A stretch of DNA of 64,000 bases from a virus (IMGVR_UViG_3300028832_000096); one strand, 5' to 3'. Numbered from the stretch's first letter, positions 39,172 through 63,031 are shown. Program-made: numbers and translations. Notes: generated by a model from the letters alone, not told the origin.

Positions 39172-39801
39172 TTAATACAAGAAATCTCTAAATATTAATT
39201 GACCATTGTTATGTTCAACAAACATCTTTTCTTGCTTATATCTTGCAGGCCTAACTGAATTAATAAGCCGCATGATATCATTCCAAGTTTTACCTGACCT
39301 CAATACATTGAACTGAATTGGATATCCACTAGTGCCGTCTTTGTCATAACACTTGTATTCAATGTTGTTTTGGTCAAGTACTTCACATAATTTTTGAGCA
39401 TCTTCTGAAGCGGTAGAAGGATACGTAAACTTAAGAATTACTTCCTTGCCGTCACTACCTTTAATACCAGATATTCTAGGTTGATAGATTTCGTAACTTA
39501 TGGAATTATCACCACGTATAGAACTTTCTTTTGGAATGAAGTAGCCACTAACTTGATAAGATTTACCTGACTCTAAATTATAGGGGTTATCAGGATTAGC
39601 TACAGTGCTATCATATATTTTACTAATCAGACACTTGTTGCCATCAGCATCTTTAAACTTTACAAATATATGATAATCACCTTTGTAATAATCGCCATCA
39701 AAAGAATATTCATAAACAAGAGATTTAGTTTCCCTATCTAACTCAATTATCTTGTTATCAAGTCCGTAGAATTTCTTAGATGATTTGATGTAGCGTTTCA
39801 T
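39172..39801 (-). CDS. leader-bearing putative internal virion protein
   Basis: MKRYIKSS leader. Confidence 0.6.
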   Translation of the reverse strand: MKRYIKSSKKFYGLDNKIIELDRETKSLVYEYSFDGDYYKGDYHIFVKFKDADGNKCLISKIYDSTVANPDNPYNLESGKSYQVSGYFIPKESSIRGDNSISYEIYQPRISGIKGSDGKEVILKFTYPSTASEDAQKLCEVLDQNNIEYKCYDKDGTSGYPIQFNVLRSGKTWNDIMRLINSVRPARYKQEKMFVEHNNGQLIFRDFLY

Positions 39802-39805
39802 ATAT

Positions 39806-40264
39806 TTAATCCTTTAGCTTACTTCTTTTAATACCATTCAAGTACTTATCACTAGTATGAGTGCTCTTAGCAGCTTCCATCGTTACACCTAAGATATTTA
39901 CTTTAAATGTATGTTCTTCATCAATGTCGTAAAAAGCTGAAAATTCTAATGGAATATAAGTATCATCTACTGAAAAAGAAGATGGAAAACAACTATCCCA
40001 TTCATATCCTTTACTTTCAAAGTACCTTATTAGTTCTTTGCAATAATCTTCTGGAGTATTATTCCAATCTCCAGTTTCTTCCATCATTCTTTCTCGCTCT
40101 TCTTCAGGTATCCAGCGAATGAACATATCTATATCTGAATCTTCATTTTGCATACCATACGCATAGCTACCGGTAACAATTACTTTATCCTTAATATCAT
40201 TAAGGATTCTTACTAGAGCTGCTTTAGAGCTTAATTTTGATGATGCATTTATATATAGTTTCAT
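39806..40264 (-). CDS. minimal nucleotidyltransferase (Pol-beta superfamily) with leader
   Basis: MKLYINASS; VTGSYAYGMQNEDSDIDMFI (GS..DxD). Confidence 0.8.
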   Translation of the reverse strand: MKLYINASSKLSSKAALVRILNDIKDKVIVTGSYAYGMQNEDSDIDMFIRWIPEEERERMMEETGDWNNTPEDYCKELIRYFESKGYEWDSCFPSSFSVDDTYIPLEFSAFYDIDEEHTFKVNILGVTMEAAKSTHTSDKYLNGIKRSKLKD

Positions 40265-40267
40265 ATA

Positions 40268-40468
40268 TCAATAAACAGAAATAATAATCCAACCAGCGTA
40301 ATTATAATCAGGCTCTATTTCCGCAACTTCTCTATAAAGCACACTATCATCACTATTATATAAATCTCGTGCTTCACCTTCAAAATACTGCTCGTTCGAT
40401 ATATTATCAAACACTGCAATACTTGTAGATAATGGAATATATTTAGTTATAAATTCCTTTAGTGACAT
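40268..40468 (-). CDS. hypothetical protein
   Basis: AGGAG RBS; similar to the N-half of 53263-53655. Confidence 0.55.
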   Translation of the reverse strand: MSLKEFITKYIPLSTSIAVFDNISNEQYFEGEARDLYNSDDSVLYREVAEIEPDYNYAGWIIISVY

Positions 40469-40515
40469 ATTAGTTCTCCTGACCTTTTACAAAGTAATTA
40501 AGATATTTATTCCAA

Positions 40516-40731
40516 TTATTTATGTCTCTGGAAATAACTCCACACTACTCCCCAAGCTACTTCGTCCAAAGTTTCGTCATAGAAGTTGCTCGCCATATCC
40601 CTTGTCACTTCAACCAATTCTGGTATAGCTGATTGCGGTATCGTCTTATTTAATCCAAAAGAAGCCATATGTTTAAGTGCACTAATTATCTCACTATCAC
40701 TGTATCTTGCAGCTCTAATGTATCGCTTCAT
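40516..40731 (-). CDS. leader-bearing small protein
   Basis: MKRYIRAA. Confidence 0.6.
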   Translation of the reverse strand: MKRYIRAARYSDSEIISALKHMASFGLNKTIPQSAIPELVEVTRDMASNFYDETLDEVAWGVVWSYFQRHK

Positions 40732-40732
40732 A

Positions 40733-42223
40733 TTATATCTCCTGTCTATTTACAAAATAATTAATCTGCTTGTTCCAGTATCTCAACCATTCATCTAATG
40801 TGCTCTGTACATCGGAAGGCTGATTACAATATGCGTAGTCGATACAATCTATGTACATCTGTACTAACGATTTGATTGTTTCTAAACTACCTTGGAAATC
40901 ATATTTTTGTACAGGAACATAATCGCAAGGGAAATCTAACTGCGGAACTGTTCCTTGCTTCTCTACAAGCAATTCACCTAATGTGTCGATTTCTTTAATG
41001 AGTTCTTCATACATTTCTTCTGCGAGAAGATGAAGTTTCATCATGTCGTTGCCGGATGACATCCAATGAATAATGTAGAGGTTTCTATATGCTCTAATAC
41101 CTGCTTTGAATACTTCACATAAGCTTGCATTAGGGTCTACTTGGCAATTATCGCATTGTTCAATATCATAACCATTTTCATCTACATCAATACCGAAGGA
41201 CTGAGGTTCCTCAGTTAAGATATTGATAAACTCCTCTTGGTTGATGATATCATCTATATCGTCTAATGTATCTGCAGGTAAGTAATTAGATTCTAATCCT
41301 AATAACTCTACAGAACCATTGATTGTTTTCAATTTAACTGAAATGTGCTTTGCACTGTTTTCCATTGATGTTTCGCCTCCATTATCTTCACTTTCAGCAG
41401 TCTGTGTTTCAGGCTGTGTTATATCAGATAAACTTGGAGCTTCTTCGCTATCTTCTGGTTTATTGCCAGGAATTAACTGGTCTAAAGAAGTTTCGTCGTT
41501 TAGTTTATCTTGGTACATTTTACCTAATTGCTGTTGGATATCAATCAATATAGGTTTAACCAAACTAAAACCAATAAACATTGCTTTATTTTCACGAGAA
41601 ATCTTTTCTTCACGAGTAGCTTGTTTATTGGTATCTTTGTTATTTACTACGTCAATGTATTTGAAAATCCACTTACCTGCATCTTCTAAACTAATGCCGT
41701 CAATTTTACCTTGGTCAAAGTTTTCAGCTTCACAATGTAATGAATAGGTAAATTTATTAAAGACAAAATCACCCCAGGTGTCAAACTTGCTATCTTCCCA
41801 AGAGTCTATCTTCTCTAAATCAATGCCAAGCATACCTTCACCACTGTGAACAGTAATGTCACCTACATAGTGTTGAACGCTTTGGTCATACTTGATTCTT
41901 CCTGAAGTTTCTGCATCTGTAAGCATATTAATTCCAGAACGAATCTTCTTATTGTTTAACGCATTAGTTGTAAGATTCTTTATGGCGTAAGTAATATCAT
42001 TGAATGCGCTATCTACATTAGTAACAGCAAGGTCTATAGTAATTGGAGTTGTATTCTCCATATCCTGGTTAGGCTTAATTACTACATGAGTAATTGCTGT
42101 TCCGGACTTTGTTTCCACATCACCGGATTCTGTAGTATAACCATCAACAATATTTCCAAGACCTTTAAATATCTTGTCGATAATGGATTTTAATTTGTTT
42201 AAATCAAATACAGTATCTGCCAT
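40733..42223 (-). CDS. large protein with C-terminal Dps/ferritin-like domain
   Basis: NLYIIHWMSSGNDMMKLHLLAEEMYEELIKEIDTLGE matches the Dps HW..G..F..LH..EE.Y..D..AE pattern. Confidence 0.72.
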   Translation of the reverse strand: MADTVFDLNKLKSIIDKIFKGLGNIVDGYTTESGDVETKSGTAITHVVIKPNQDMENTTPITIDLAVTNVDSAFNDITYAIKNLTTNALNNKKIRSGINMLTDAETSGRIKYDQSVQHYVGDITVHSGEGMLGIDLEKIDSWEDSKFDTWGDFVFNKFTYSLHCEAENFDQGKIDGISLEDAGKWIFKYIDVVNNKDTNKQATREEKISRENKAMFIGFSLVKPILIDIQQQLGKMYQDKLNDETSLDQLIPGNKPEDSEEAPSLSDITQPETQTAESEDNGGETSMENSAKHISVKLKTINGSVELLGLESNYLPADTLDDIDDIINQEEFINILTEEPQSFGIDVDENGYDIEQCDNCQVDPNASLCEVFKAGIRAYRNLYIIHWMSSGNDMMKLHLLAEEMYEELIKEIDTLGELLVEKQGTVPQLDFPCDYVPVQKYDFQGSLETIKSLVQMYIDCIDYAYCNQPSDVQSTLDEWLRYWNKQINYFVNRQEI

Positions 42224-42254
42224 AGTTATTTGTGATTCCTTTTAAAGTAAATGA

Positions 42255-42288
42255 CCCTACAGGCAATTTATCTCAATCACCTGTAGGG
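42255..42288 (-). terminator. stem-loop terminator/processing site
   Basis: CCCTACAGG/CCTGTAGGG. Confidence 0.5.
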
Positions 42289-42319
42289 CCGTGTTTACAT
42301 TGTAAGTAACTTCTAGAAA

Positions 42320-42757
42320 TTACTTGCGGATTCTGCGAGAAGCAGCAACCTTACGAGCCGGCCTTGCGAGCTTCTGAGAAGCAGCAATCTTGCGACCGCG
42401 AACTCTTGTTGATTCCTCAACAACTTCCTCATCGCCCTCAGGTGTAACGGTAATCTCGTCGTCACCAACTGTGAAAGTAACTTCTGTTGTCTCGTCGTCT
42501 ACTGTGTAGTCAACAGGCTCACCTGTAACTTCAGCAAGGACCTCAGCAACATCAGCTGCCTCGAAGAGAATCTCTTCCTCAAATGCCTCTTCCTCAATAG
42601 GTGCTTCATCAACCGGAGCTTCCTCAACATCGATATCATCAACCTGGATATCTTCGATGTCTTCATCGGAACGGATGAATCTACGAGATGCACGAACGGG
42701 GCGCTTAGCAGAAGGCTCAACCTTCTTGCTTGCACGTACTGTCTTTGTGTACTTCAT
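42320..42757 (-). CDS. acidic core/scaffold-like protein with multiple [IV]xAS motifs
   Basis: VRASK, VRASR, IAASQ, VAASR flank an E-rich core. Confidence 0.6.
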   Translation of the reverse strand: MKYTKTVRASKKVEPSAKRPVRASRRFIRSDEDIEDIQVDDIDVEEAPVDEAPIEEEAFEEEILFEAADVAEVLAEVTGEPVDYTVDDETTEVTFTVGDDEITVTPEGDEEVVEESTRVRGRKIAASQKLARPARKVAASRRIRK

Positions 42758-42773
42758 ATGAATTTCTCCTTAA

Positions 42774-43484
42774 TTAATTAAGTGCTACTAATTTGTTCTT
42801 TCTCGATTCAAGTTCTTGCCTTATTGCTTCTAACTCTGCATTAGCTTCTGTTAGTAAGGTTTCACCATCAAACGATACATTAGAACCTTCAACTCTGTAC
42901 TTACTGCGTGACCTGCCTAATGACTTTTTCATGTTAGCTTCAGACATTCTTACTAGATAGTCTACCCAAGTATCACTCTTGATTTCGCTAACATCTTGAT
43001 AATCAGGTACGTAAGTAATAGTTACTTGCGTAGGTATTGGTTCGCGATGAGATACATAAACAACTTCATTATCTACATCATGTTTCCACTGGAAATCTGT
43101 TGATAAAGTATTTCTGACCTGAGCCATTGCCATCTCGGTCATGATAGGGTCAACATTCAATGAAGAAGTTTGACCTATAGCTGAGTATGTGTTAACAGCT
43201 GCGGCGACTTGAAATACGTTTCCGCTATCTATGGAACTCATCACAAGACCAACACGAGGATATGCAGCTTGTACATTCAAGACCTTTTTGGTCTTTATTC
43301 CTAATTTGACGAGGTCAAGCCTCTTTTCAAAAGGAACTGTTATGTCTACTGGTGTCTTCATGTAGCGTTTTAACTCACGAAACGCAATGAGTACTGCTTG
43401 CTCGACTTGCATCTGTTCGGTATTGTCATTTGCTGGCGTACCTAACATGAAGCTTACTTGCTGTACAATCTCCTGCATTGTCAT
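42774..43484 (-). CDS. neck/head-completion protein (T4 gp13-like)
   Basis: C-terminal LGRSRSKY..G.NVSFDGETLLTEANAELEAIRQEL. Confidence 0.65.
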   Translation of the reverse strand: MTMQEIVQQVSFMLGTPANDNTEQMQVEQAVLIAFRELKRYMKTPVDITVPFEKRLDLVKLGIKTKKVLNVQAAYPRVGLVMSSIDSGNVFQVAAAVNTYSAIGQTSSLNVDPIMTEMAMAQVRNTLSTDFQWKHDVDNEVVYVSHREPIPTQVTITYVPDYQDVSEIKSDTWVDYLVRMSEANMKKSLGRSRSKYRVEGSNVSFDGETLLTEANAELEAIRQELESRKNKLVALN

Positions 43485-43511
43485 AAGTTAACGCTACCGC
43501 CTAATTCTAGA

Positions 43512-43859
43512 TTAAGCCTGAGAAGATTCGCCGGCAAACGTGAAGCCCTGGCTCGCAAGAGCGGGAGCAATCTCACCAACATACTGAACGTCTGCGTCAG
43601 TAGCTTCCCAAGCGTAGGAACCAGCACGCATTGCAGCTCTGAGAGCAGCGATAAGACCCGGATGAGCGACCTGAGCGTTGAAGAATGCCTCAAGGCTCAT
43701 AGCGTCACCAAATCCACCGACGTTTGTATCATAGTAAGTACCGTCAAATGCCTGAGCATCAGCAGCAGCATTTGTAGGAACAAACGTAGCACAAATCTGA
43801 GCAGCAGGTGCTACTGAAGCGTCAACGGGCGCGGTGTAAGTAATGGTAATAGTTGCCAT
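43512..43859 (-). CDS. Ala-rich virion protein (possible capsid decoration)
   Basis: Start re-set to MATITITY (AGGAGG RBS); motif-B promoter; codon usage like the capsid gene. Confidence 0.55.
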   Translation of the reverse strand: MATITITYTAPVDASVAPAAQICATFVPTNAAADAQAFDGTYYDTNVGGFGDAMSLEAFFNAQVAHPGLIAALRAAMRAGSYAWEATDADVQYVGEIAPALASQGFTFAGESSQA

Positions 43860-43961
43860 AACTTTTTGCCTCCTTGTTTTGATAAAAAATTTGATTACTT
43901 CTCGATGACCAGTCGAGAATTGCAAATTTCACTTCTTATCAGTATATAAGGTTAAAATAAA

Positions 43962-43989
43962 ATACGCTTATTATATTAAATAAGCGTAT
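43962..43989 (-). terminator. intrinsic terminator
   Basis: ATACGCTTATT/AATAAGCGTAT + T-tract. Confidence 0.55.
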
Positions 43990-44017
43990 CTAAATTAGTA
44001 TTCAGTTAACAATTTGA

Positions 44018-44881: not shown

Positions 44882-44886
44882 TAGTA

Positions 44887-45168: not shown

Positions 45169-45185
45169 CGTTATTTACACCTCGA

Positions 45186-46130
45186 TTACTTTAAGTATTT
45201 TTCAAATGAAGCTAAATATTCGTTGATGCTACTAGCGCAACCCTTTAAAGTTCTATAACCATTACCTTTTGTAAATTCAGCTAACTTAACAGGGTCAATA
45301 GAACCGTCTTCTTTTGTGCAAGCTTCAAGACCTTCGAGCATATCTTTATAATAGCTAATTGCCCAACGAAGATTTCCCATAGCCTTATCACCGCTGTAAG
45401 GAATTTTTCCTTTACGGACATCAATAGAATCAAACAATCTTGATTTGCAAGAATTGATTTTATCGTAATAATCATCAAGCGTTTTCTTAACTTCGTCAAG
45501 TCTGCCCTTAAGCCTATCAGGGAATCTTTTATATAATCTGGAATATAATGTCTCAGGATTAGGAATCGTATAACCTGACTTATCACGATTGCCAGGCTTA
45601 GACCATTCAGCGTCAGCGTGACGATTGCTTGTGCGTTCCCACTTATGCGTTTCGTTATTGTATGCTTCAGGAAAATCGGGAACCTGACCCATGTATTCAG
45701 GCTTAGAATCGCTCCAGCGCTTTTCATATCTAGGGTCAACATAACCTCTACCTTCACGAATATCCTTGCGCAAAGGAGCTGTCATATAAACTGTATCAAT
45801 GATGTGTTCCTGAATACGGGCTTTAGAAGCTGTAGCTAATGCTCTATACCTATCTCCTGCAGGAATGTGTCTTCCATAACCACCCATTACTTTGGGAACA
45901 TATACATACTGACCAGCAGGTGTCTTATAAGATTCACCCCAACGAGTTTCTTCCTTGTAAGTATCATCTAATAAATAAATCGGAACGCTATCAGGCTCCT
46001 CTACTTTTGAAAACTTAGCCTGCGACATTGCGTAACTCTGATTAAGGTAGCTGAGGGCTTCCTTACCGGCTTCGCTCTTTAACCAACTCGGCATTGACGA
46101 GTCATACGATGCTCTGATGTATCTCTTCAT
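45186..46130 (-). CDS. leader-bearing putative internal virion protein
   Basis: MKRYIRAS; motif-B promoter at 46201. Confidence 0.65.
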   Translation of the reverse strand: MKRYIRASYDSSMPSWLKSEAGKEALSYLNQSYAMSQAKFSKVEEPDSVPIYLLDDTYKEETRWGESYKTPAGQYVYVPKVMGGYGRHIPAGDRYRALATASKARIQEHIIDTVYMTAPLRKDIREGRGYVDPRYEKRWSDSKPEYMGQVPDFPEAYNNETHKWERTSNRHADAEWSKPGNRDKSGYTIPNPETLYSRLYKRFPDRLKGRLDEVKKTLDDYYDKINSCKSRLFDSIDVRKGKIPYSGDKAMGNLRWAISYYKDMLEGLEACTKEDGSIDPVKLAEFTKGNGYRTLKGCASSINEYLASFEKYLK

Positions 46131-46234
46131 AGACAATCTCCTTCGGGAATATAATTATGATAAACAATCTAATAATATATAGTTATCGACATTATCATTT
46201 AAGGTTATATTATCACACCAATTATAAAGAGTAT

Positions 46235-46244
46235 GAATCGTTAT
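46235..46244 (+). promoter_or_regulatory. promoter motif A on plus strand driving the inverted island
   Basis: GAATCGTTAT 23 nt before the ATG at 46267 (AGGAGG RBS). Confidence 0.75.
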
Positions 46245-46266
46245 TGTAAGTGGCAGGAGGTAAATT

Positions 46267-49200: not shown

Positions 49201-52200
49201 AAACAGTTATTACATATAAGTGTAGTAAATGTGGTAGCAAAAACGCTGCTTGGTTGATGAATGTTTGTATGCATCCAATTCAATGTGGCATCTGCAATAA
49301 TAAAGAATGGATTACATCAGAACAGATTATTGATGAAAGATATAACAAACACTGCGCGGATATGAGAGGTGATACAGAATGAGTGGTGGAAGTTTTGATT
49401 ATTTGTATTGTAAAGAGCCTGGAGAGCTGTTTGAACAAGTTGAATATATCGAAGATATGAGCGAAATTGCTTTGCGATTTGGTTATGAAGATATAGCACT
49501 TGATTTAACTCGGCTTGCTGAATACATCAAGTCAGCGAAAAACAGAATAACAGTCCTACAAGAACAATTAAAAGAGGTTATGCATTCAATCGAATGGTAT
49601 GACAGTCACGATATTGGAGAAGATACACTCAAAAAGAGGTTTGAAGAATACAGAAGTGGGGCGGACCTGCGAGGTGATACGAAATGAACAACGATTTAAT
49701 TAGTCGTAATTCTGTTATTGAATTATTAAAGAAATGGTCAGATGGATATTCTTATATTGAATTACCAACCGAAGATGCAATTAAACAAATGTCCGCATTA
49801 CCTGCAGTAGAACCTGAAATCGCAGACAGTTTTTATATAATCACACATACAGGGCAAAGAGTTGAATTTGAAATGAAACGGCCAAAAGGCAAGTGGAAAG
49901 TTTATGGGAAGCAAGGTAACATTCCAATTACTGATATGTGTTCAAATTGCCGATATGAAATGAAATGGTATAAGAACAAACATAACTTCTGCCCTAACTG
50001 CGGCGCAGATATGCGAGGTGATACAGAATGAGTAAGTGCAATAATTGTATTCATAGATACGTTTGCGAATTAAAGTGTGCATACGAAGATAATGATAGGG
50101 AGTGTCTTGATTTTGATGAAGAAAGACCGCAAGGCGAGTGGTTGCACAACGGAATAAATGTTGAGGGTATGGACTTATACCGTTGCTCTATCTGTAATCG
50201 CAGTATTGTAACTTGGAGTTCAAGAATTGACGAATATCCTTATTGTCATTGTGGAGCAGATATGCAGAAAGGCGGTGTGGAATGAGTGAAATTCGTTGGA
50301 CAGACAAGGTGTATCTTGATAGTCAAGGCAACATAAGAAGTTCTGATGGTTGTCCTACTGACCAAATGACACAAGAACTGATTAACAAAGTTATGACTAA
50401 CATTGGTTGTGCAAAACCTATTGAGGGAGACGGTGCGGAATGAACAACGACTTAATTAGCCGTACTGCTTTGAAAAAAGAATTGTCAAAACGATTATGGT
50501 TTGTCAGTAGTCCAGAAACGGATGCACAAGCGATTAAGGACATTATCGACAATGCACCGACAGTTTCAGACAGATATGACGAAGGGTATGCACAAGGCTA
50601 TGTTGACGGAAATACCGGAGCAGATTGGAGAGGTGATACGGAATGAAACCAAAATGGTTATACAGGTTAGAGGCGGTAAATCCTGAAAATGGTCTTTGGT
50701 ATAATTCAAATGGTCAATTAGTTTGGGATATAGGTAAACTTGAAAACTGTACTACAAAAGATTTACCTATGGACTATGATGAGAGGTATCATAAGGACGG
50801 TAGATTTTGGTACTCATCTTGCAGTAGAAAAGAGGATTTAAGCCATTGGTATTCTTTGCAAGACGCTCTTGATTTAATTGCTAACGGATTTGTATTTACT
50901 CGTTATCTTGCAACCGAATATGTTGAGTACGATATGGAAACAACATTTATTAAGGAAACATCACTCGCAAGAGAAATCCTTAATATCAGTGATATTTGGG
51001 AAGATGGTGACGCTGAATGAGAATAGTAAATCAAACACACTATTATGACATCATAATAAATGGACAAACAGTAACTCCCTCGCAGGAATACACTACGGGT
51101 GAGATGATGTTTAACTCCCAAGCAATATTTTCTGATGTAGGTTCAGTAGAAATCATTACTGAATATGGCAAAAGGACATTCAGGAATTATGGAAATCTTA
51201 AGGCCTATGAAGATAAAATTCTTAAAGATGCAAATGGTATGCCTCAGATTATGGTAGTACATACTATGCCTCAGAATCTATACAAAGGAGAATAAAGAGA
51301 GGTGCGGAATGAAACTGATAATTGATATTCCCGAAGAACAATATAATTTCATCAAACTGTCTGATAAATCTGTTTTTGCAGATGCATCAAGTAAGGAATG
51401 TATGCTTAACTCGATTAAAAACGGCATACCGCTACCAAAGGGACACGGCAGACTTCTTGATGAAAATTATGTTATTGCAGAATTAGTCTATCGAAAGAAC
51501 TTGTTAGCAGACAATGTAAAGTGTGGTCAAGTCACAGAGATTTTCAACAATGCAGTTGTAATTGATGCAGATATGGAGAGTAACAATGAAACTAATAATT
51601 GATATTGACGAGAAAGAATATAGAACTATTCTTGCTAATGCAGAATTGTATAAAGCCACGAATTGGGGCAGTGTTAATGTATGGGACGCAATCTTAAATG
51701 CTACACCAATTTCAACAGACGGCGATTTAATTAGTCGCAGTGCTTTGAAAGAGGAAGTAAATAAGAAACGAGTTGTTGGAAGATTTAACACATTAGTGCT
51801 TATCGACAATGCGCCCTCAATAGAACCAGAAAATCGAAAGGTAGTGCGGAATGACTGATAAAGAAATTAAAGCATTGCAGCAATTTGTAGAAACTTCAAG
51901 TGCAACTGTCACAATACTGACATCCCTAATAGAGGACCTTGCACCTATTATAGGATATGACGAAGCAAATCGTTTGATGAAGATTTATATCGATGCACAA
52001 GCGAAATATGAGTGATGTAAAATGACACAGGATGAATTTGCTAAAGAAATTGGTTATAATGGTTGTCGCAATTGTGTACACCAAATATCACCTTTGAGGA
52101 TGTGCGAATGGGCAGAGCACGGTGGAGATGGCAAAATTCACTTAATATGCCCATATTGGATTAAACGAGGTAATGAAAATGAAATGTGATAAATGTTTAA

Positions 52201-52560: not shown

Positions 52561-53226
52561 TTAAGGATTCTGAGAAAATTTAAAATTATCTAAATCAGCA
52601 ATAAGTGCATCTACATCTGAATTGGATTTGCTGCTAGAATTGAATTTCTCAAGAATACTTCTGTATTCCACCATCTTATTCTCAACATTTTCTGCTTCGC
52701 TGATAGCGTAGCGAACATATCTAACTAACTCATCACGGGATTTCTTATTACCGATAGCTAAATATCTTTCAGCTGCTTCAGCTAATCTCTCACCGGATGC
52801 GGTCCAGTTACTAAACTTTATAGAATTATAAGTTTTATTAGGGTCACGACCTTCAGCTCCGTATACATCGCTGCAAGCATCAACATCGAAATCTCCAGAA
52901 GAAGCTTGTTCCTCAAGCGCATCCCAGATTTCATCGCTTATAAGGTCGACTGCTTTAAGGCCTTTCTTAATTTTATAGCCGTAATCTTTTACCTCACTAT
53001 CAATGTGTTTAGTGAGATAATTTTTGCAAGCTTTTGCAAACTTTTCAGGAGTATTGTATTTCCAGTCATAATCTGCATCATTAACTTGTTCGATAACTCC
53101 CGTGATTAAATCAGCTTCATCTATGAAATCTGTCATATCTTCGACAGAGGATATAATTCCCTTTTCATCAAAATCCTTAGAAGCTTTTAAGTAACTGCTG
53201 GGATACTTTCTGTTTGTCCTCTTCAT
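52561..53226 (-). CDS. leader-bearing putative internal virion protein
   Basis: MKRTNRKYPSSYLKAS (start re-set, GGAGG RBS). Confidence 0.65.
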   Translation of the reverse strand: MKRTNRKYPSSYLKASKDFDEKGIISSVEDMTDFIDEADLITGVIEQVNDADYDWKYNTPEKFAKACKNYLTKHIDSEVKDYGYKIKKGLKAVDLISDEIWDALEEQASSGDFDVDACSDVYGAEGRDPNKTYNSIKFSNWTASGERLAEAAERYLAIGNKKSRDELVRYVRYAISEAENVENKMVEYRSILEKFNSSSKSNSDVDALIADLDNFKFSQNP

Positions 53227-54179: not shown

Positions 54180-54197
54180 GCTTTTATCCTCGTAGTA

Positions 54198-55398: not shown

Positions 55399-56844
55399 TC
55401 AGAAAGCGCCAAGAACCTTACCAGAAACGATGGTATTCGGGTTGACGATTTTGGTTGCATACATTGTTGCAAAACCGGACTGTACAGAAGCGTTAGCAAG
55501 ACCGATATCGTCTGTCTTAATCATCGGCATATACTCACCGTAGAGAGCTGAGTTACGACGAATGTCGTTGGACTTGCAGCACATAACCCAAGTATTGACA
55601 TCGTAATAAGGGTCAACGTAGATTGTGTACTGGTCAAGTGTACCAAGCTTGTAAGGACCAACGGGCTCTTCGTTAGAAGCTGCAACGAAACCAGGAAGTC
55701 TGGAGATGAGAGAAGCAACCTTTGTACCACAGATGATTCTGTTAGGTCTAGCGAGGTTTGTTGCCTGGAAGACTGCATTAGCTGCATCATCAAGCTTGAA
55801 CTTGAAGAGGTTAAGGAAGTCAGAAGGCATTACAGCGCCGTTGAATGCAAGAGATGCATCCCAGTTGTACTGAGGAGCATATGTTGCAGCAGCTGCGAGC
55901 TGGTTGAAGCAATAGCTGTTGATTTCAGCTGTGAGCTCTGAGAAAGCAGCTTCCTTAGAAATCTCACCGATGTTTGCACCGTACTCCTGCTGAGCAGCGA
56001 ATGCAGAATAGATGGACCAATAAGAAGCGATTTCGTGTGCCTCAGCGATGAGGTTGATTTCGTCGAGCTGGAGGTAGCCCTTTGCCATCTTAGCACCGTA
56101 GTTACCATTCTGGTCAGGACCTACTGTCTCGTTGTCATACTCATAAGAAGCAGAAAGTGTTCCTGTGAGTGTGCCGATTGTACCAAGTGCGTAATCGATT
56201 GTGCCTGCTTCAGAAGAATTAGACTTCTTAATGAGCTTACCAGCACCATCATCGATATAGGTATCAGTACCATCGGAGATAGAAACTGAACCAGGGAGAA
56301 TAGGAGTATAAGCAAGTGTGCTGTTAGCAACTGCTTCGTTCCTGATTACACGACCTGTGAAGTTCGGGTCCATACCCTGACGGTTAACAAATGCAGAAGA
56401 AAGGACTGTGCCCTTAGCTGTCTCACCCTTTGTATTCTCAGCGATGAACTTGAAATAAGGGATAATCTGCTGACGAGACTTCATTGCAACAGAACCGAAA
56501 ACGTCGAGAACGAGGAGCTTCTGAACGAACATCGGGAGGAGCTCTACGAAATCGGGCTTAGCGATGATGTTGGATGTGTTTGTAGCACCCATGATAGCAG
56601 ACTGTCTACGTGTGTTGCTAACAAGCTGATTAGCGAAGATACGCTGCTCAGGTGTGAGCTGAACGGAAGCTGCTACTCTAGACATAGGACGAGCCATTCT
56701 AGAACGAGCGCCAGCGGTGATAGAAGTACCAGCATTGATGCTACGAGGAGCAGAATAGCCGATTCTAGCGGGTCTATCCATCCTCTGAGAAGCGGTAATG
56801 CTACGAGAAGGAGTAACTCTACGAGTTGTCTTTTTAATAGCCAT
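55399..56844 (-). CDS. major capsid protein (T4 gp23-like) with basic propeptide
   Basis: LLVLDVFGSVAM, IASYWSIYSAFAAQQEYG, ELTAEIN, GTLDQYTIYVDPY, YGEYMPM, SGFATMYA; directly follows the prohead protease. Confidence 0.88.
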   Translation of the reverse strand: MAIKKTTRRVTPSRSITASQRMDRPARIGYSAPRSINAGTSITAGARSRMARPMSRVAASVQLTPEQRIFANQLVSNTRRQSAIMGATNTSNIIAKPDFVELLPMFVQKLLVLDVFGSVAMKSRQQIIPYFKFIAENTKGETAKGTVLSSAFVNRQGMDPNFTGRVIRNEAVANSTLAYTPILPGSVSISDGTDTYIDDGAGKLIKKSNSSEAGTIDYALGTIGTLTGTLSASYEYDNETVGPDQNGNYGAKMAKGYLQLDEINLIAEAHEIASYWSIYSAFAAQQEYGANIGEISKEAAFSELTAEINSYCFNQLAAAATYAPQYNWDASLAFNGAVMPSDFLNLFKFKLDDAANAVFQATNLARPNRIICGTKVASLISRLPGFVAASNEEPVGPYKLGTLDQYTIYVDPYYDVNTWVMCCKSNDIRRNSALYGEYMPMIKTDDIGLANASVQSGFATMYATKIVNPNTIVSGKVLGAF

Positions 56845-56883
56845 AATTTTCTCCTAGTGTTTAATGACTTTAATATAGTGAAG

Positions 56884-58377
56884 TTAAAGTACTGCTAAAT
56901 CTCCACTATCGCCGTCTTCAGTTGCCACATCGACAGGAAATACATCTTCATCATCAAATGAAGGATTAACTCCGATGTTTCCGCTGTTTGTTGCGCCTTG
57001 GATTAAGTTTTCCAAATCGCTGACGGTAGTAGATGCAGTTACTGATAAACCAGATGCTCGAATTCCGATAGCATTTGCATAAATGTTAGCATAAGCTTGC
57101 TGATATTCATGCAACATATCTTCCATTGCGAGGATTCGCTTTTCAAGAGAACTAATCTCTTTCTTGGAAGAAGACATTTCAGCTTTGAGTTCGTTGATTT
57201 GCTCACCACGGTTTGATGCTTCTTTAGTTGCGTTGGTAGATGCTACAACAGTCTTGTTTAATCTAGAACGTAACTCTGCAATCTCTGTATCTCTTGCTTC
57301 TATGTCTGCCGAGGAACTCTCGACCTTCTGTTTATAAATAAGGTTATTTTTACGAGCAGAATTTAATTCTTGCATAATTTCAGAATTTCTTGTTTCTGCT
57401 TCGGCTAACTTAGCAGTGAGCTGCTTATTTGCAACTACTAAACTGCGCTGTTTTGTATTCAAATCTACTTTAGAGGCTACAACAGTCTCAATCTTAGATT
57501 GCATTAACTTATTCTGGCTTGCAGAAATCCTCTTAATGCTCTTAATCTGTTTGTCGTAATTAGCTTGTGTCGATGCTAAAGCAGCTTTGAGCTGTTTGTT
57601 CTCAGCAACCTGCTCCATGTACATCTCTGTAACAGCCTGAAGCTTCTTGCCCATAATCTCTTCTTTATCTTCATCGGAGCATTCAGGGCATGTATCGTCT
57701 TCAACACCGATATCTTGCTTTCTTGCTTCAAGCTTTTCATACTCTTTTGAATCAGGATTAAATTGCTTTTGCATTGCTTCGATAGCTTCTACTGTAGCAA
57801 CATTATTGATATTCTTCTCAATTGCAGCACAAACTCTCTTATATTTAACCTGGTCGTCAAGATTCTTGGAAGCAGCAATCTGCTGGAACTCAGGAACTGC
57901 GTCACCATAAGCAGGGAACGCAACTAAATCGAAACCTCTGAATACAAATGTATCAGGGTCTACATTACCTTCAGCATCTACGTCACCGGCACCTCTGATG
58001 GAGATTCCCCACTCAACACCTGCGTCCATAAATGCTTTGACAATTCTACCAACAGGAGTATCGATTAAGTCGAATGTGCCCCATACCTCATCGTCATCAT
58101 GAAGTTCCATATCAGTCATTACAATACAAGCGTCCTGGAACGTCTGTGCTCCAGGGTCTTCAGGATGTCCAAGGTAGCCGATGTAATATCTATGTTCCAT
58201 CGCATCTCTATATTCATCGGAAGCAAGCAACTTCTCAAACAACTCTCTGTTAAGCTTCATTGAATTGTTGTTGAATACTGCTGCATCACAGCACTTGCCT
58301 GTGAATGTTCCAAGAATAGAAGAAGACTTCTTAGGTTCTTCTACTACAGCTGCTGTTACTTTAGCTTTGTTAGCCAT
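56884..58377 (-). CDS. prohead protease (T4 gp21-like) fused to coiled-coil scaffold
   Basis: GYLGHP, LIDTPVGRIV, GISIRGAG, FDLVAFPA; ~250 aa coiled coil. Confidence 0.88.
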   Translation of the reverse strand: MANKAKVTAAVVEEPKKSSSILGTFTGKCCDAAVFNNNSMKLNRELFEKLLASDEYRDAMEHRYYIGYLGHPEDPGAQTFQDACIVMTDMELHDDDEVWGTFDLIDTPVGRIVKAFMDAGVEWGISIRGAGDVDAEGNVDPDTFVFRGFDLVAFPAYGDAVPEFQQIAASKNLDDQVKYKRVCAAIEKNINNVATVEAIEAMQKQFNPDSKEYEKLEARKQDIGVEDDTCPECSDEDKEEIMGKKLQAVTEMYMEQVAENKQLKAALASTQANYDKQIKSIKRISASQNKLMQSKIETVVASKVDLNTKQRSLVVANKQLTAKLAEAETRNSEIMQELNSARKNNLIYKQKVESSSADIEARDTEIAELRSRLNKTVVASTNATKEASNRGEQINELKAEMSSSKKEISSLEKRILAMEDMLHEYQQAYANIYANAIGIRASGLSVTASTTVSDLENLIQGATNSGNIGVNPSFDDEDVFPVDVATEDGDSGDLAVL

Positions 58378-58396
58378 TTATATCGCCTCCAAATTA

Positions 58397-58765
58397 TTAC
58401 TTCAAATCTCCACCAAGTAATTTACCTGTAAGTCTTACTAAGCCGCCAACTGCGAGAGTCTTAAGTGCTTCTTTAAGAAGACCACCTTCAACAACCTCAC
58501 CTTCGTCGACTTCTGTATATTCAATATCGTCAATTTCTTCAAAAGTAGTTTCATTAATATCTGCTACTTCGTCAACTACCTCAGGCTCAACTTCAATCTC
58601 TTCTGCATCAGCCTTGTTAATAGAATAAGAAGAATCTCCGATATTTACTGTGATTGTAGAACCGTCTTCATTTACGACAATGTCTTTATCAGCAAGTTCG
58701 TCAATCTGACGAAGGAAATCTAATAATGAAGCTGTTGTAAATAAAATTTCATTATCCATAATCAA
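58397..58765 (-). CDS. acidic head-associated hypothetical protein
   Basis: E/D-rich, adjacent to the protease. Confidence 0.6.
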   Translation of the reverse strand: MIMDNEILFTTASLLDFLRQIDELADKDIVVNEDGSTITVNIGDSSYSINKADAEEIEVEPEVVDEVADINETTFEEIDDIEYTEVDEGEVVEGGLLKEALKTLAVGGLVRLTGKLLGGDLK

Positions 58766-59571
58766 AACTCCCCATCGTCACCGTAATTAGGGTAGACGCT
58801 ACCGTCCCTAAGTTTATTGTATTCATCTAAAGTAATTTCATCTTCAGAAAGAATAAAAGCTAGTGCTTGACCATAAGCATCCTGTCCGTCAAAATCATAG
58901 CTACCTATAAATCTCTTATTCTTATACAGCATTATCTCGCAAAGAGTATCGCTAATTCTTTCTACAGAATATGCGCAATCTCCAATCTGATAATATGAAT
59001 AATTCTCTAAACTGCCTGCTACAATTTTTCTACCATTTGTTTTTGTAGAAGCATCAAGGAAGAAGTCCTCAAGGTCTTGCTGACTAGGATTCATTCCGCC
59101 CGAAGTCTTAGGGGTAACAGGTGATACCTCTGCAGGTACTTCAGGTGCTACCTCTTCAGGTTCTGTCTTACCATAATTGTAAGTGCCCTTTCTACGCTTA
59201 AGATAATCGTAGCATTCATAAACATCAGATACTGTAATATCACGAACTATATGACCACCCATGTAGTCAACTTCGTCCTGATTATCTCTCTTCCAAACGT
59301 CTTTGCCCTTGCCCCAATCTTCAGCCCAAATCTTGACAACTTGCTTTGCTTTATCAGCAAACCAATTTCTAACCCATTCTTCAGACTTGCCATTGAAACC
59401 ACTTCTCCAAGAAGTATCGTCAACTTGTAATTCGTTGTTCTTGTTAACATCTGCGTAGCTCCAGTACTTACTCATACCGTTGCTATTTTCCCAGATACCA
59501 TCGGATAACTGACCAAGGACGCTATCAATAACTTCTGCTCGAACGTCATTGCCTAAAGGAATTGTAATCAT
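58762..59571 (-). CDS. hypothetical protein
   Basis: GQLSDGIWENS motif; P/E-rich linker. Confidence 0.65.
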   Translation of the reverse strand: MITIPLGNDVRAEVIDSVLGQLSDGIWENSNGMSKYWSYADVNKNNELQVDDTSWRSGFNGKSEEWVRNWFADKAKQVVKIWAEDWGKGKDVWKRDNQDEVDYMGGHIVRDITVSDVYECYDYLKRRKGTYNYGKTEPEEVAPEVPAEVSPVTPKTSGGMNPSQQDLEDFFLDASTKTNGRKIVAGSLENYSYYQIGDCAYSVERISDTLCEIMLYKNKRFIGSYDFDGQDAYGQALAFILSEDEITLDEYNKLRDGSVYPNYGDDGEF

Positions 59572-59619
59572 ATATAGTATCTCCTAATATAATAAATGTT
59601 ACCTATAAATAAGGTGTTA

Positions 59620-60465
59620 TTAGCTTCTATCAAAAATTTCAGGATGGTCTGCAAGCATTTTCTCTAAATCAATTATGTTGATTCCATCCATGTATTCGTC
59701 TAAATCAAAATTAGTTATGTCGTATACATCAACATAGTCCCAATCATATCCGCCCTTAGGTGTATGTGCAAAACCTTTAAATCTAGGATATTTATTGTAT
59801 CTGGATTCATAAACTAAGTATATAGTATCAACTGTTTCAGTAAATCCGTTACTAAATTCTACTTCGGTATCTGCCTGGATATAAGTATCTTCATCAATGT
59901 CTTCGTTGTTGTGAAATGCTTCAAGGACTTTATCACATCTACTACCTGTAGATGCTTCTATGTTTGTAGCACCTTCAACAGCTCCTCCACAACAATCTAT
60001 GTACTGCTTAGAGATGTCCTCAAGTAAAGTAGGAACGTATTTCTGAAGGTCACTCGGTCTCTTAATTTTCCTGAAATCTATTGTAGTGTATGATGTAGAT
60101 TCCATATCTCCTGCGATATCAAAATCAACTTCGAGTTTGTTTCCATCGATATAGCATCTTAAATTAACAATTTCATCAGGCTGTAAGTCAAATGTTTCAC
60201 GAATCTTTTCTTCTAACGGAATTTCAATAAACTCAATTTCGTCATCTCTTGTAAAGAACTGGTCATCATCGTATCCAAACATGCCCTCGTCAGCAGTTAT
60301 CTTTGTAGATGATTCAATGCCGTCAATCTTTCTGTAATTCTGTTGCCTTACTGCATTCTTTGCGAATTCAATAGCTTCCTCAATCTCTTCTTGCGGAATA
60401 CTAGATATCGTATCAGAATTCAAAAGTAAAACGTCTAAGATGCCAACTACTTTTTCAGGTGTCAT
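59620..60465 (-). CDS. acidic multi-segment protein with internal IESST/VEGAT/IEAST motifs
   Basis: Candidate protease sites separate the domains. Confidence 0.6.
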   Translation of the reverse strand: MTPEKVVGILDVLLLNSDTISSIPQEEIEEAIEFAKNAVRQQNYRKIDGIESSTKITADEGMFGYDDDQFFTRDDEIEFIEIPLEEKIRETFDLQPDEIVNLRCYIDGNKLEVDFDIAGDMESTSYTTIDFRKIKRPSDLQKYVPTLLEDISKQYIDCCGGAVEGATNIEASTGSRCDKVLEAFHNNEDIDEDTYIQADTEVEFSNGFTETVDTIYLVYESRYNKYPRFKGFAHTPKGGYDWDYVDVYDITNFDLDEYMDGINIIDLEKMLADHPEIFDRS

Positions 60466-60478
60466 TTTAATATCTCCT

Positions 60479-62125
60479 TTATGTTGTCCAAAGGTTCCAA
60501 ACTTCTTCAGGATACTGAGAAGGATATAAGTACCTTAAACCGTTAAGTTGTTCCAAACCGCCAAGCTGTATCTTCCAAATAATCTGTGCAACCTGATTGG
60601 TTCCAATACGAATTATGTTTTTCTGAACAGCCTCTCTGTTCTCCGGATTGGTCATGTCTTTCCAAGTACCTGCATTATCACCAGAACGATATATGATAAG
60701 TACTTCTGCATCCTTTGTAGGAATATATCCATTACTAAAGACAATTGTTGTTTTTTCAGAAGTTGCTTTAAATGAATATGCAGCATCAGGAATTACATTT
60801 AAGTTAGTATAGTTTATAACAATAGAAGATTCGTCAGCAGGAGCTGTTGCAAATACTATGTTACTACCATCTATAGTATAATCAGAGGTTTCTACATTGT
60901 CTATTTTAACAGATGTAATGATATCAGCGGTTCTAAGCAATTTAAACGATGTAGTATCACCGTCACCTTGTTCGATTTGAGATGTTTCATTACAAGTAAT
61001 GGAATCTATGGATAATATCACTGCATCAAGTTCATATGTAGACTCACCAGTAGCAGTAAATATTGTTTCTGCACCTAAGATATCTACTTGGTCGTCTGTA
61101 GGCATTATTCTATAACCTGCAAGCAGTCCGTTGTCACCGCTGTTATTGTAATAAGGCTTAGACCATAATCCTGCTTCTGTTATATAGACGTAATCTCTAT
61201 CGTACTCCCACTGTTGTGTTAAGTCGTTGAAATGACGCCCTCTGAACTGTGCTAATGCACCTGTGGATATCATTGCACTGTAAATAACATCAAGTGTGTT
61301 AGGAATTTCAGATTCTACTTCAGGAATAATTCGCCTATAGGTAATCTGGCTTCTTGCAACATCTTCAGCAATAAGTTCGCAATTGATAGCATCTGTTCCA
61401 TCTACTGCGTAGATTACTGCGATTCGGCTACCTTCCGTCATCGTCGCTGTAATTGTTAATTCGTATTGATTATTATCATTGTAACCTAACGAATATTCAT
61501 TTACAGATAATACTTGACGAACAACTGAAGTGTTTTCGATATCTTGATTTACTACGCCGTCAGGGTAAACTGTAACAGAGATGATACTATCTTTATCTCC
61601 TGTAATCGGAACACCGGTCAGAATGTATTGGTCGCCTGCAGTAAAGAAGTCCTGTGATAACTTTGCCGGTTTGTCTTTGTAAGGTTGTCCTAATCCAAAC
61701 CATTCACGGTCGTTGTTACTATAAGCGTCATAACCGTCAGCGCCAAAACCGGGAGCTTGATTGATGTATTCAGAATAGCGTAATCGCGCATTAAGCTCTT
61801 TCTCTTGTGCAGTTGCATTCGCAGGAGCTATCGGAGTGTAACCAATTCCTACAGGAAGATAATCTTCAGCATCTTGTGAAGTTAAACCCATTGTGCCTAC
61901 GGAAATATACTGAGGTACCCACATAGATAAAGTGTCCTGAGATTGATTCAGAACACCATCACCAAGTAAGTAGTGAGCAATACCTGTGAGCAATGAGTTA
62001 GTAGCAGCATTATGTCCGACATGTTCTTGGACTACCTTATTGGTAGCCTCATCGATTACTCGAATCGTAACATTCTGCTTTACATCAAGTCTTTTTATTA
62101 TGTCTAATGGGTTTGTGTTATCCAT
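60479..62125 (-). CDS. structural protein (baseplate/tail-associated, tentative)
   Basis: Beta-rich, T/D-rich, GDGDTTSF repeat-like segment; late region. Confidence 0.55.
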   Translation of the reverse strand: MDNTNPLDIIKRLDVKQNVTIRVIDEATNKVVQEHVGHNAATNSLLTGIAHYLLGDGVLNQSQDTLSMWVPQYISVGTMGLTSQDAEDYLPVGIGYTPIAPANATAQEKELNARLRYSEYINQAPGFGADGYDAYSNNDREWFGLGQPYKDKPAKLSQDFFTAGDQYILTGVPITGDKDSIISVTVYPDGVVNQDIENTSVVRQVLSVNEYSLGYNDNNQYELTITATMTEGSRIAVIYAVDGTDAINCELIAEDVARSQITYRRIIPEVESEIPNTLDVIYSAMISTGALAQFRGRHFNDLTQQWEYDRDYVYITEAGLWSKPYYNNSGDNGLLAGYRIMPTDDQVDILGAETIFTATGESTYELDAVILSIDSITCNETSQIEQGDGDTTSFKLLRTADIITSVKIDNVETSDYTIDGSNIVFATAPADESSIVINYTNLNVIPDAAYSFKATSEKTTIVFSNGYIPTKDAEVLIIYRSGDNAGTWKDMTNPENREAVQKNIIRIGTNQVAQIIWKIQLGGLEQLNGLRYLYPSQYPEEVWNLWTT

Positions 62126-62175
62126 AATTAAACTTCTTCGTAATCTACTCCAAAATTATTTAAAGGTGGAAATTA

Positions 62176-62484
62176 TCACCATAAAGGTCTTCCAGGATAC
62201 TTTTCCCTGTATTCTTCCCAACCTTCACGCCACTTATTATATGCTTCGTCTGGTGATTTATAGATACGGCTCGGTTTAATCATTCCTACCTCATTATCAT
62301 AATCTTCTAACGAAACGAGAACTCTGCCATCCTTAAACCCGACTACTGTCCCCCAACTAGAACCGTTTTCTAGGTCGCCTTCACAATATACATAATCGCC
62401 AATTTTCCATTTGAAAGATAATGCAGTATCTTCCGAGCTTGCCCTTATATAACCCTGAGGATATTTAGTAAATGTTCTCTTCAT
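62176..62484 (-). CDS. leader-bearing SH3/Tudor-like small protein
   Basis: MKRTFTKYPQGYIRASS; KIGDYV...GTVVG...VLVSL. Confidence 0.6.
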   Translation of the reverse strand: MKRTFTKYPQGYIRASSEDTALSFKWKIGDYVYCEGDLENGSSWGTVVGFKDGRVLVSLEDYDNEVGMIKPSRIYKSPDEAYNKWREGWEEYREKYPGRPLW

Positions 62485-62498
62485 AAGCAACTCCTTTA

Positions 62499-62810
62499 TT
62501 ACCTGTATCTACTGCGCACAAAATAAGATATGCCTTGTGTAGTTTCGGGTACATAATATTCATCAAACTGAAACTGTGACATGTGTGCAAACTGAACAAC
62601 TATCTTTTCAGGGTTGTAACCAAGAACTCTCGCTAAGTCTTCGCCGATTTCGCGAGCTTCGTCTTTAGAGTCTGCTTCTACATACACATTATATAAAGGA
62701 ATCAAATCACTTATCATCCTGTAGAAACTAATATGCCACACATTCGCTTCTTTATTTTGATAATCAGATGCTAATATTGATGAAGGATACTTTGTAAATG
62801 TTCTTTTCAT
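62499..62810 (-). CDS. leader-bearing small protein
   Basis: MKRTFTKYPSSILAS. Confidence 0.65.
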   Translation of the reverse strand: MKRTFTKYPSSILASDYQNKEANVWHISFYRMISDLIPLYNVYVEADSKDEAREIGEDLARVLGYNPEKIVVQFAHMSQFQFDEYYVPETTQGISYFVRSRYR

Positions 62811-62815
62811 AAAAT

Positions 62816-63031
62816 TTACCTCATTCTACTAAGTATTTCATCATGTAAAATTTCTTTAGCTTGTTCGTCGTTACTTCCTATGGCAATAAGAAGAACATAT
62901 TGGTCTAACAATTCTCTATTGCTTTTAGATTTAGCAGCCTCTTTACGAGATAATCTAGTGAATTGTTCTTGTTCTCCGATATCATATGAAGCAGATATAT
63001 TGCTTGGATACTTTGTAAATTTTCTTTTCAT
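62816..63031 (-). CDS. leader-bearing small protein
   Basis: MKRKFTKYPSNISAS; motif-B promoter at 63067. Confidence 0.6.
   Translation of the reverse strand: MKRKFTKYPSNISASYDIGEQEQFTRLSRKEAAKSKSNRELLDQYVLLIAIGSNDEQAKEILHDEILSRMR

Follow-up and report, generated by a model that had tools for sequence, protein, structure and literature searches.

Why should a set of otherwise unrelated phage proteins begin with one and the same short, basic leader? The question is raised by a 64,000-nucleotide (nt) stretch of DNA (the window) from the uncultured phage IMGVR_UViG_3300028832_000096, in which 135 proteins were called. A preliminary description of this stretch had noticed that unrelated open reading frames of the late region start with one of two related basic leaders, and had proposed that these form a portable tag that loads a large and variable set of cargo proteins into the phage head. 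With a probability of roughly 0.6, the leaders are T4-type capsid-targeting propeptides that would be removed by the prohead protease of the phage, acting with a specificity for Ala/Ser; this reading is based on sequence comparison and on the analogy with T4. Each of four rival explanations is ranked lower.

The tag and its distribution

All 14 leader starts previously reported were confirmed, all on the minus strand (Table 1), and each is preceded by a Shine-Dalgarno-like GGAG/GAGG 6–10 nt upstream. When all six frames of the window were scanned with two strict patterns, MK.[YF][IVL].[AS][SAT] for a short and MK[RK]...KYP.{2,6}[AS][SAT] for a long form, seven short and five long tags were found, every one of them at a listed gene start; no match occurred in the other frames or on the plus strand. 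Residue shuffles of the called proteins yielded a mean of 0.0185 and a maximum of one strict tag, compared with the 12 found. Together with two variant leaders, on the genes starting at 42757 and 12835, this amounts to 12 strict plus two variant cases instead of the approximately 15 proteins mentioned in the preliminary description. Its statement that the leaders share their last residues proved accurate, as every one of the 14 ends in [IVL]-x-[AS]-[SAT]. The consensus of the tag is M-K-x-Y-[IV]-x-[AS], that is, seven residues before [SAT], and the long form aligns with the short one as the same tag with an eight-residue insert after residue 3 (M-K-x). Once the tags were removed, BLASTP detected no pairwise similarity among the 14 proteins (all E-values >0.1). 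The mature parts of the tagged proteins are mostly acidic (isoelectric point [pI] 4.1–6.2).

Tagged genes lie on the minus strand around the head genes, at 39–63 kb. The strict tag is present on 10 of the 27 called minus-strand genes at 38.7–64 kb (37%) and on none of the 98 other called genes (Fisher p = 5e-8), which include the 1–38 kb block, encoding SMC-like, UvrD, SNF2, Stealth, DUF932, and sigma-like proteins, and a plus-strand block at 46–52 kb. Early-type and DNA-metabolism genes of the window thus lack the tag, whereas an equal frequency of the motif on early, non-virion genes was what the preliminary description had named as speaking against its own proposal. Synonymous codons vary between the tags (Tyr TAC/TAT; Ile ATC/ATA/ATT; Ser TCA/AGC/TCT/TCG; Arg CGC/CGA/AGA), and conservation of the DNA upstream of the tagged starts was looked for among the leader genes and not found. 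Free codon choice and unconserved upstream DNA indicate that the tag is conserved at the level of the peptide, and a DNA repeat or promoter cassette as the origin of the shared leader was therefore ruled out.

It would nevertheless be conceivable that the leader serves translation initiation or stability, or that a host protease such as Prp cuts it. Lysine as the second residue is common in well-expressed genes, and the nearest cultured relatives of the phage infect Firmicutes, the group with Prp (PMC9261936). Furthermore, the staphylococcal phage 80alpha carries L27-like leaders on its non-homologous capsid and scaffold proteins, which the host cysteine protease Prp cuts at F↓A (PMC5744158; the arrow denotes a cleaved or predicted bond throughout); a short N-terminal leader common to non-homologous phage proteins and removed during assembly is precisely what would be shared with the present case. 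However, free codon choice speaks against a signal at the mRNA level, the 98 other genes, presumably including well-expressed ones, are untagged, and the occurrence of the end motif inside the scaffold (see below) is not explicable by start-codon context. Prp cuts Phe-Ala within an L27-like motif (PMC5744158), whereas the tags contain no such motif; F↓A occurs in no strict tag, only in the weak variant at 12835. Whereas 80alpha relies on a protease of its host and has none of its own, the phage studied here encodes one. We consider this explanation very improbable.

Comparison of homologs reveals that the tag is portable, as the preliminary description had held: different proteins have acquired it, exchanged it, or lost it. 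Of 107 homologs of the tagged nucleotidyltransferase, the 12 closest (70% identity or more) carry the tag, whereas the others combine the same catalytic domain with unrelated N-termini. The latter include one in a tag-using member of the same clade (G011) and another in a phage in which no such protease was found (G017). A profile search located three loci for this family; the gene was not present in five relatives, and an IMG/VR search with one of its homologs gave no match. Many of the untagged homologs (P0042–P0058 and others) start with MEI(N/S)R(I/L)YE, ending in [IL]-x-E, which could be a Glu-type tag of phages with Glu-cutting proteases. The first module of the 52561–53226 protein carries the long tag in three proteins and the short tag in three others, and the homology between the mature parts of both versions begins exactly at the predicted cut. 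In the homologs of this protein (P0108–P0113), the downstream modules are swapped at a conserved GDFDVDA(C/S) junction, which is followed by VY(G/A)A; judging from this arrangement, the junction looks like an internal cut site between two cargo modules, that is, like a small polyprotein. The ortholog of the 45186–46130 protein in L003 is tagged as well (MKMYIKAA), and the small acidic, core-like protein encoded directly upstream of the protease, untagged in the window and counted as tagged in a single lineage, starts with MKKRYIRSA in the L022/L023 lineage and with MIDLKKVIHAA in the L004 lineage.

Such portability bears on the notion that the shared N-termini have no function of their own and reflect only common descent, or cassettes recombining where genes begin. 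The window does contain other N-terminal families that resemble paralogs, starting with MNNDLISR (six genes) and MK[LI][VI]I[DE][IL] (five genes), and several of the tagged genes in one relative, G008, are clearly paralogous. Yet, the mature parts of the tagged proteins are unrelated, the DNA around their starts is not conserved, the tag was gained on pre-existing families, and it is under selection at the amino acid level across phages whose capsid proteins are only 55–65% identical. Of all the rivals, this one is the least credible.

Among the relatives, the number of tags per genome ranges from 0 to 25, nearly all on the coding strand, with 0–1 for reversed-pattern controls. The tagged set differs between close relatives, which bears out the variable cargo set proposed earlier. 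G008 is an example of heavy use, with 22 of 217 called genes tagged (about 10%). A dependence of tag number on genome size was considered and rejected: genomes of 159–171 kb have 11–25 tags, others of 158–166 kb have 0–1, and one of 253 kb has 17. In G010 (the contig of L040), which is devoid of MKxY tags, six proteins start with MKRV[IV]R[SA]S (e.g., 195–515, 130823–131026, 148741–149010, and 150241–150573). Between lineages, the consensus of the tag has thus shifted (Tyr4 to Val), and some genomes counted as zero carry a variant. A search of IMG/VR with the back-translated long tag gave no match; MKRRF and MKRKF, as present in relatives, fell outside this overly strict pattern. Tag usage is widespread but specific to lineages.

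The head protease and its predicted sites

The tagged genes surround a head module of the T4 type, consisting of a gp23-family major capsid protein and a gp21-type prohead protease fused to a coiled-coil scaffold (Table 1). In the latter, residues 1 to ∼166 form the protease (H71 and S126) and residues ∼170–497 the scaffold. A model of the protease domain (predicted local distance difference test [pLDDT] 82) matched the fold of T4 gp21 best (5jbl; E 3e-6, template modeling [TM] score 0.60–0.65), followed by herpesvirus assemblins (E 7e-3 and worse). When a profile built from 27 orthologs was aligned with T4 gp21 (E 1.6e-4), H71 fell on H85 and S126 on S140. Both residues are invariant in these orthologs; a third catalytic residue, such as the second His of a Ser-His-His triad like that of assemblins, was looked for after S126, and no invariant His was found there. 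Sequence searches of the PDB with the capsid protein, the protease, and the protease profile returned nothing useful. The phage is a member of a large clade of uncultured phages from the gut or rumen, with genomes of roughly 125–250 kb; its closest relative in IMG/VR is a 200-kb contig with an 85% identical capsid protein, and a DNA search of the head region against cultured phages gave no match.

If this protease removed the tags, the motif at their end would be expected in its other substrates too. The scaffold part contains 12 [IVL].[AS][SATG] sites where 4.0 are expected (p<0.0005), and six of the strict form where 1.1 are expected; the T4-type [IVL].E is not enriched there. Over all proteins of the window, [IVL].AS occurs 31 times: the protease-scaffold accounts for seven of these sites, the capsid protein and the acidic protein at 42320–42757 for four each, and most of the remaining ones are the tags themselves. 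The protease-scaffold also ranks first for [IVL].AS in two complete relatives, of 217 and 232 genes. By these counts, the motif at the end of the tag clusters in the expected substrates of such a protease.

Candidate sites in the protease-scaffold comprise VTAA close to the N-terminal end, IAA↓S directly behind the protease domain, RISA↓S, two copies of TVVA↓S, GIRA↓S, and, ∼50 residues ahead of the acidic C-terminal end, SVTA↓S. Their positions are kept within otherwise variable sequence: in the 27 orthologs, A168–A169, directly after the protease domain, is invariant and S170 nearly so, R-I-x-A-x-Q near 284 and T-V-x-A near 377 are conserved in position, and so is V-T-A-S-T ∼50 residues before an acidic C-terminal end that finishes with LVTL. 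The capsid protein has its candidate sites (SITA↓S, SINA↓G, SITA↓G, RVAA↓S, and AIMG↓A) in the variable, basic N-terminal ∼90 residues. Across 44 orthologs, this region diverges strongly, yet it always holds repeated [IV]-x-[AS]-[GSA] in a basic context, with one such site directly before a conserved LTPEQ helix; I-x-A-A-T-N-T is conserved as well. The predicted maturation cut could be at either RVAA59↓S or IMG86↓A. The acidic protein at 42320–42757 contains four [IVL].AS sites against 0.16 expected (p<5e-5), two at either end of its acidic core, and its positional orthologs in relatives also have basic leaders ending in [IV]xA. By its sequence, it is probably a substrate of the prohead core type that is trimmed at both ends.

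The placement of these sites also helps to judge whether the tag could address a different structure (tail, baseplate, or a structure of the host), or target the prohead without being cut. Tagged genes do lie in the late/structural region, which in relatives also holds tail and baseplate genes. But the end motif clusters in the scaffold, in the capsid propeptide, and in the protease itself, whereas adaptor-like or large structural proteins show no such concentration; moreover, the long- and short-tag homologs mentioned above join their mature domain exactly where the cut is predicted. A different destination, or an uncut tag, is therefore regarded as quite unlikely.

The proteases of T4, phiKZ, 201phi2-1, and SPN3US all cut after Glu (PMC5694885), so that a member of the T4-type protease family cutting after Ala/Ser would be new. 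The tags (which contain no Glu), the scaffold, and the homologous autoprocessing site alike speak against cleavage after Glu in an L/I-x-E motif, as it occurs in T4. When 1.84 billion representatives were searched with the protease profile, ∼80 clusters (50% identity) at E 1e-60 or better were taken as the clade, and a distinct set of proteases at E about 1e-30 as its sister group. At the homologous site closing the protease domain, 79 clusters of the clade have IAA↓S, 55 clusters of the sister group have [LVI]xE↓S, and T4 has ITE187↓S. The scaffold parts follow the same division: those of the clade (79 members) contain 6.4 Ala sites versus 1.7 expected (mean Z 3.9), with Glu sites at chance level, whereas those of the sister group (55 members) contain 18.8 Glu sites versus 10.3 expected (Z 3.3) and 0.6 Ala sites versus 1.0 expected. 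From these alignments, the protease of the clade appears to have switched from cutting after Glu to cutting after Ala/Ser, within [IVL]-x-[AS]↓[SAT]. One of the few alignment columns that separate both groups is position 75 of the window's protease, just after the catalytic H71. Arg stands at this position in each of the 55 Glu-type sequences counted, including T4 (R88), and in none of the 81 Ala/Ser-type sequences. In P0226, a protease scoring with the Glu-type group, the autoprocessing site is I-A-S↓S and the Arg is missing; this protein may represent an intermediate state or a switch that occurred a second time. In Bacillus phage HSE3, the nearest cultured phage, the Ala/Ser-site pattern was looked for and not seen.

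Comparison with known systems and weighing of the reading

In T4, the prohead protease gp21 cuts a capsid targeting sequence (CTS) off the internal proteins IPI–III and Alt (Mullaney and Black 1996, via PMC9026906). In the T4 genome (AF158101), the leader of IPII and IPIII reads MKTYQEFIAE↓A. Targeting depends on its residues 4 and 7 and processing on residues 8 and 10, and by itself it brings foreign proteins into the head (PMC9026906). Among T-even relatives, the internal proteins that follow CTS-like leaders differ (PMC9026906), so that an expandable set of cargo is already established knowledge. The parallels to the present phage are several: a short N-terminal leader on unrelated proteins, with M1, K2, Y4, and Ile at P3 in common between the T4 leader and MKRYIKA↓S; a gp21-family protease and a gp23-family capsid protein; and a cargo set that differs between relatives. 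Likewise, gp21 contains its own motif at its N-terminal end and at the end of the catalytic domain, MANKAKVTAA in the phage described here being the counterpart of LIE-9 (PMC9026906). There are also differences, as the CTS comprises 10 residues with Glu at P1, whereas the tag comprises seven with a predicted Ala/Ser at P1 and has an additional form with an eight-residue insert. Furthermore, the scaffold protein gp22 of T4 is separate, whereas protease and scaffold are fused here, and tag use is much heavier here than in T4 (see the shares given above for G008 and the late region of the window).

By this analogy, the front of the tag, M-K-x-Y, would dock a protein on the scaffold core during prohead assembly, and its back, [IV]-x-[AS]↓[SAT], would let the protease remove the tag once the shell has closed. 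The mature cargo would then remain in the head together with the DNA and would probably be ejected into the host. Whereas the tag, its portability, the family of the protease, and both the concentration of the Ala/Ser sites and their homology can be read directly from the sequences, cleavage, targeting to the prohead, packaging, and injection of the cargo are steps that we infer from T4; of the proposal that a portable tag loads cargo into the head, it is the loading that shares this status.

Leaders cut by the prohead protease need not be address labels. They could be propeptides that keep enzymes inactive or soluble up to the closure of the capsid, with entry into the head mediated by the mature parts, an explanation that accounts for the same evidence on sites as capsid targeting does. 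Head proteins of SPN3US often enter uncut, and propeptide lengths vary widely (PMC10052503, PMC5694885); the acidic mature parts of the tagged proteins could, in addition, favor binding to basic partners. What argues against this is M-K-x-Y, which is conserved even though the [IV]-x-A↓S cut does not need it, given that the sites in the scaffold and capsid proteins lack it. M-K-x-Y also matches positions 1, 2, and 4 of the T4 leader, of which position 4 is a targeting determinant (PMC9026906), and a docking surface of its own on each of fourteen unrelated folds is unlikely. Propeptides without an address are hence considered improbable, albeit the strongest of the four rivals.

Herpesviruses offer a second comparison. 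The predicted sites of the UL26-type protein of pseudorabies virus are YLQA-T (the release, or R, site) and VQA-S (the maturational, or M, site) (PMC4498786), following a hydrophobic-x-Ala↓Ser/Thr rule like that predicted here, and in the R site, Tyr precedes as it does in the Y-[IV]-[KR]-A↓S of the tags. The order protease, site after it, scaffold, and site near the C-terminal end (the latter of which would free the scaffold from the capsid protein) is also that of UL26, although the sites are predicted ones in the phage. The fold is related, ranking just below T4 gp21, yet Pfam assigns only Peptidase_S77 to the phage protease, so that it does not belong to the assemblin family (MEROPS S21). 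No short N-terminal cargo tag is known from herpesviruses. Because the sister group and T4 use Glu, the assemblin-like specificity is most simply explained as a secondary switch inside the phage family.

In the giant phages phiKZ, 201phi2-1, and SPN3US, propeptides of head and ejection proteins are cut at S/A-x-E by gp21-like proteases (PMC5694885, PMC10052503). As proposed here, many head-internal proteins are processed by a T4-related protease, propeptides can have multiple sites, and the protease trims its own C-terminal end. However, these proteases cut after Glu, most of the propeptides are long (up to about 125 residues) instead of being a uniform short tag, and most head proteins remain uncut.

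Several observations weigh against capsid targeting with Ala/Ser cleavage. The bare four-residue end motif ([IVLF]-x-[AS]-[SATG]) shows no general enrichment at N-termini (0.0089 per position among the first 20 residues versus 0.0087 elsewhere), so that only the full tag is enriched there, and cargo proteins do not avoid internal sites (0.28 versus 0.25 per 100 amino acids [aa]). Since the bare motif is common and the cargo shows no depletion of it, its context must play a part, and the precise bond to be cut, assumed by analogy to lie between [AS] and [SAT], is a guess. The AlphaFold model of the capsid protein is poor (pLDDT 58) and its profile alignment to T4 gp23 weak (E 0.14 in local mode), which leaves the maturation cut with two candidate positions. 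The best cultured matches to the capsid protein, from Bacillus phage HSE3, Listeria phage LIS04, and Streptococcus phage GXN1, are only 24–28% identical. In G008, most tagged genes are at least 55 kb away from the head genes. The correlation between the change from Glu to Ala and the loss of Arg is a single evolutionary event between two clades rather than a set of independent repeats, and that Arg 88 lines the S1 pocket of the T4 protease or contacts the P1 Glu is an assumption.

With these points in mind, a more far-reaching version of the capsid-targeting reading is put forward only tentatively, and we deem it rather more likely to fail than to hold in full. The clade (∼80 protease clusters) would have re-tuned a T4-type protease from Glu to Ala/Ser, perhaps via loss of the one Arg beside the catalytic His, arriving independently at an assemblin-like rule. 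A minimal, seven-residue, two-part tag for address and release would load, clip, and inject up to two dozen enzymes and anti-defense effectors per genome, some of them as multi-module polyproteins cut at the same motif.

Genes of the window and implications

Coordinates of the tagged genes and the head genes are compiled in Table 1. ESM Atlas look-ups for two of the cargo proteins yielded no function. The outlying acidic protein at 12479–12835 resembles an L015 protein whose start reads MKRKITSSKVPVTAA↓E.

Table 1. Tagged, variant-tagged, and head genes of the window. Arrows in the leaders mark predicted cuts.
Feature	Coordinates	Strand	Remarks
Tagged, 209 aa	39172..39801	-	Short tag MKRYIKS↓S; no Pfam/PHROG match, weak fold leads only
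Tagged nucleotidyltransferase, 152 aa	39806..40264	-	Short tag MKLYINA↓S; NTP_transf_2, Pfam PF01909 4e-7; GS...DxD motif
Tagged, 71 aa	40516..40731	-	Short tag MKRYIRA↓A
Variant tag, 145 aa, acidic core	42320..42757	-	Leader MKYTKTVRAS; TVRA↓S and PVRA↓S at N end, KIAA↓S and KVAA↓S at C end
Tagged, 93 aa	44887..45168	-	Long tag MKKTFTKYPSNYVKA↓S
Tagged, 314 aa	45186..46130	-	Short tag MKRYIRA↓S; true start 46130, not TTG at 46136
Tagged, 221 aa, two modules	52561..53226	-	Long tag MKRTNRKYPSSYLKA↓S; modules meet at the GDFDVDA(C/S) junction
Tagged, 123 aa	53808..54179	-	Short tag MKIYVNA↓S
Tagged, 164 aa	54198..54692	-	Short tag MKIYVKA↓T
Tagged, 87 aa	54689..54952	-	Short tag MKIYVKS↓S
Major capsid protein, T4 gp23 family	55399..56844	-	Pfam Gp23 4e-21; phrog_138
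Prohead protease fused to coiled-coil scaffold	56884..58377	-	Peptidase_S77, phrog_207; gp21/S77 type
Small acidic protein, clade-conserved, untagged here	58397..58765	-	Directly upstream of protease
Tagged, 102 aa	62176..62484	-	Long tag MKRTFTKYPQGYIRA↓S
Tagged, 103 aa	62499..62810	-	Long tag MKRTFTKYPSSILA↓S
Tagged, 71 aa	62816..63031	-	Long tag MKRKFTKYPSNISA↓S; true start 63031
Variant leader, 118 aa, very acidic	12479..12835	-	MKITKRPIFA↓A; outside head region; weakest member of the set

Other features of the window were noted in passing. MNNDLISR(x)ALK starts six small early-region genes (20658–20999, 22414–22821, 28152–28562, and 28559–28942 on the minus strand; 49684–50031 and 50440–50646 on the plus strand) and constitutes a second recurrent N-terminal module, seemingly longer (about 15 residues), present on both strands, and unrelated to the head tag. 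MK[LI][VI]I[DE][IL]P(E/A) starts the small genes at 25495–25632, 29639–30139, 30579–30890, and 30896–31198 (minus strand) and at 51309–51602 and 51562–51858 (plus strand), which probably are an early-region paralog family. The 309-aa protein encoded at 31962–32891 (minus strand) combines HTH_3, sigma-70 region 4, and the C-terminal domain of the RNA polymerase alpha subunit (Pfam 9e-18 and 2e-15), an unusual fusion that might rewire host transcription. Two paralogs of about 530 aa at 10855–12453 and 18155–19744 (minus strand) have the N-terminal motif FGI(V/I)SYFP in common; the former, the only one of the two tested, contains a Stealth CR2 domain of the sugar-phosphate transferase type. The region 33700–36270 is GC-rich, with few open reading frames, and encodes tRNA-Tyr, tRNA-Met, and tRNA-Leu; tRNA-Gln is located at 17730–17803.

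On the sequence evidence, what is new here is the clade, the shorter tag with its insert form, its heavy use, and the predicted cut after Ala/Ser. The latter had escaped the preliminary description, as had the fact that its two leader types are one tag with or without an insert, and that an expandable cargo set is known from T-even phages (PMC9026906). If the capsid-targeting reading is true, the T4 principle extends, with a shorter tag, to an abundant clade of uncultured phages. That clade and its sister group would then represent a natural experiment on the specificity of prohead proteases, in which the substrates switched together and one residue is the candidate cause, and the resulting rule would parallel that of herpesvirus assemblin within the protease lineage that phages and herpesviruses share. 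A seven-residue tag for encapsidation and release could also serve for packaging proteins into phage capsids. For the biology of these phages, it would mean that dozens of uncharacterized proteins are likely cargo delivered by the virion, and thus a sensible place to look for early-acting anti-defense factors.

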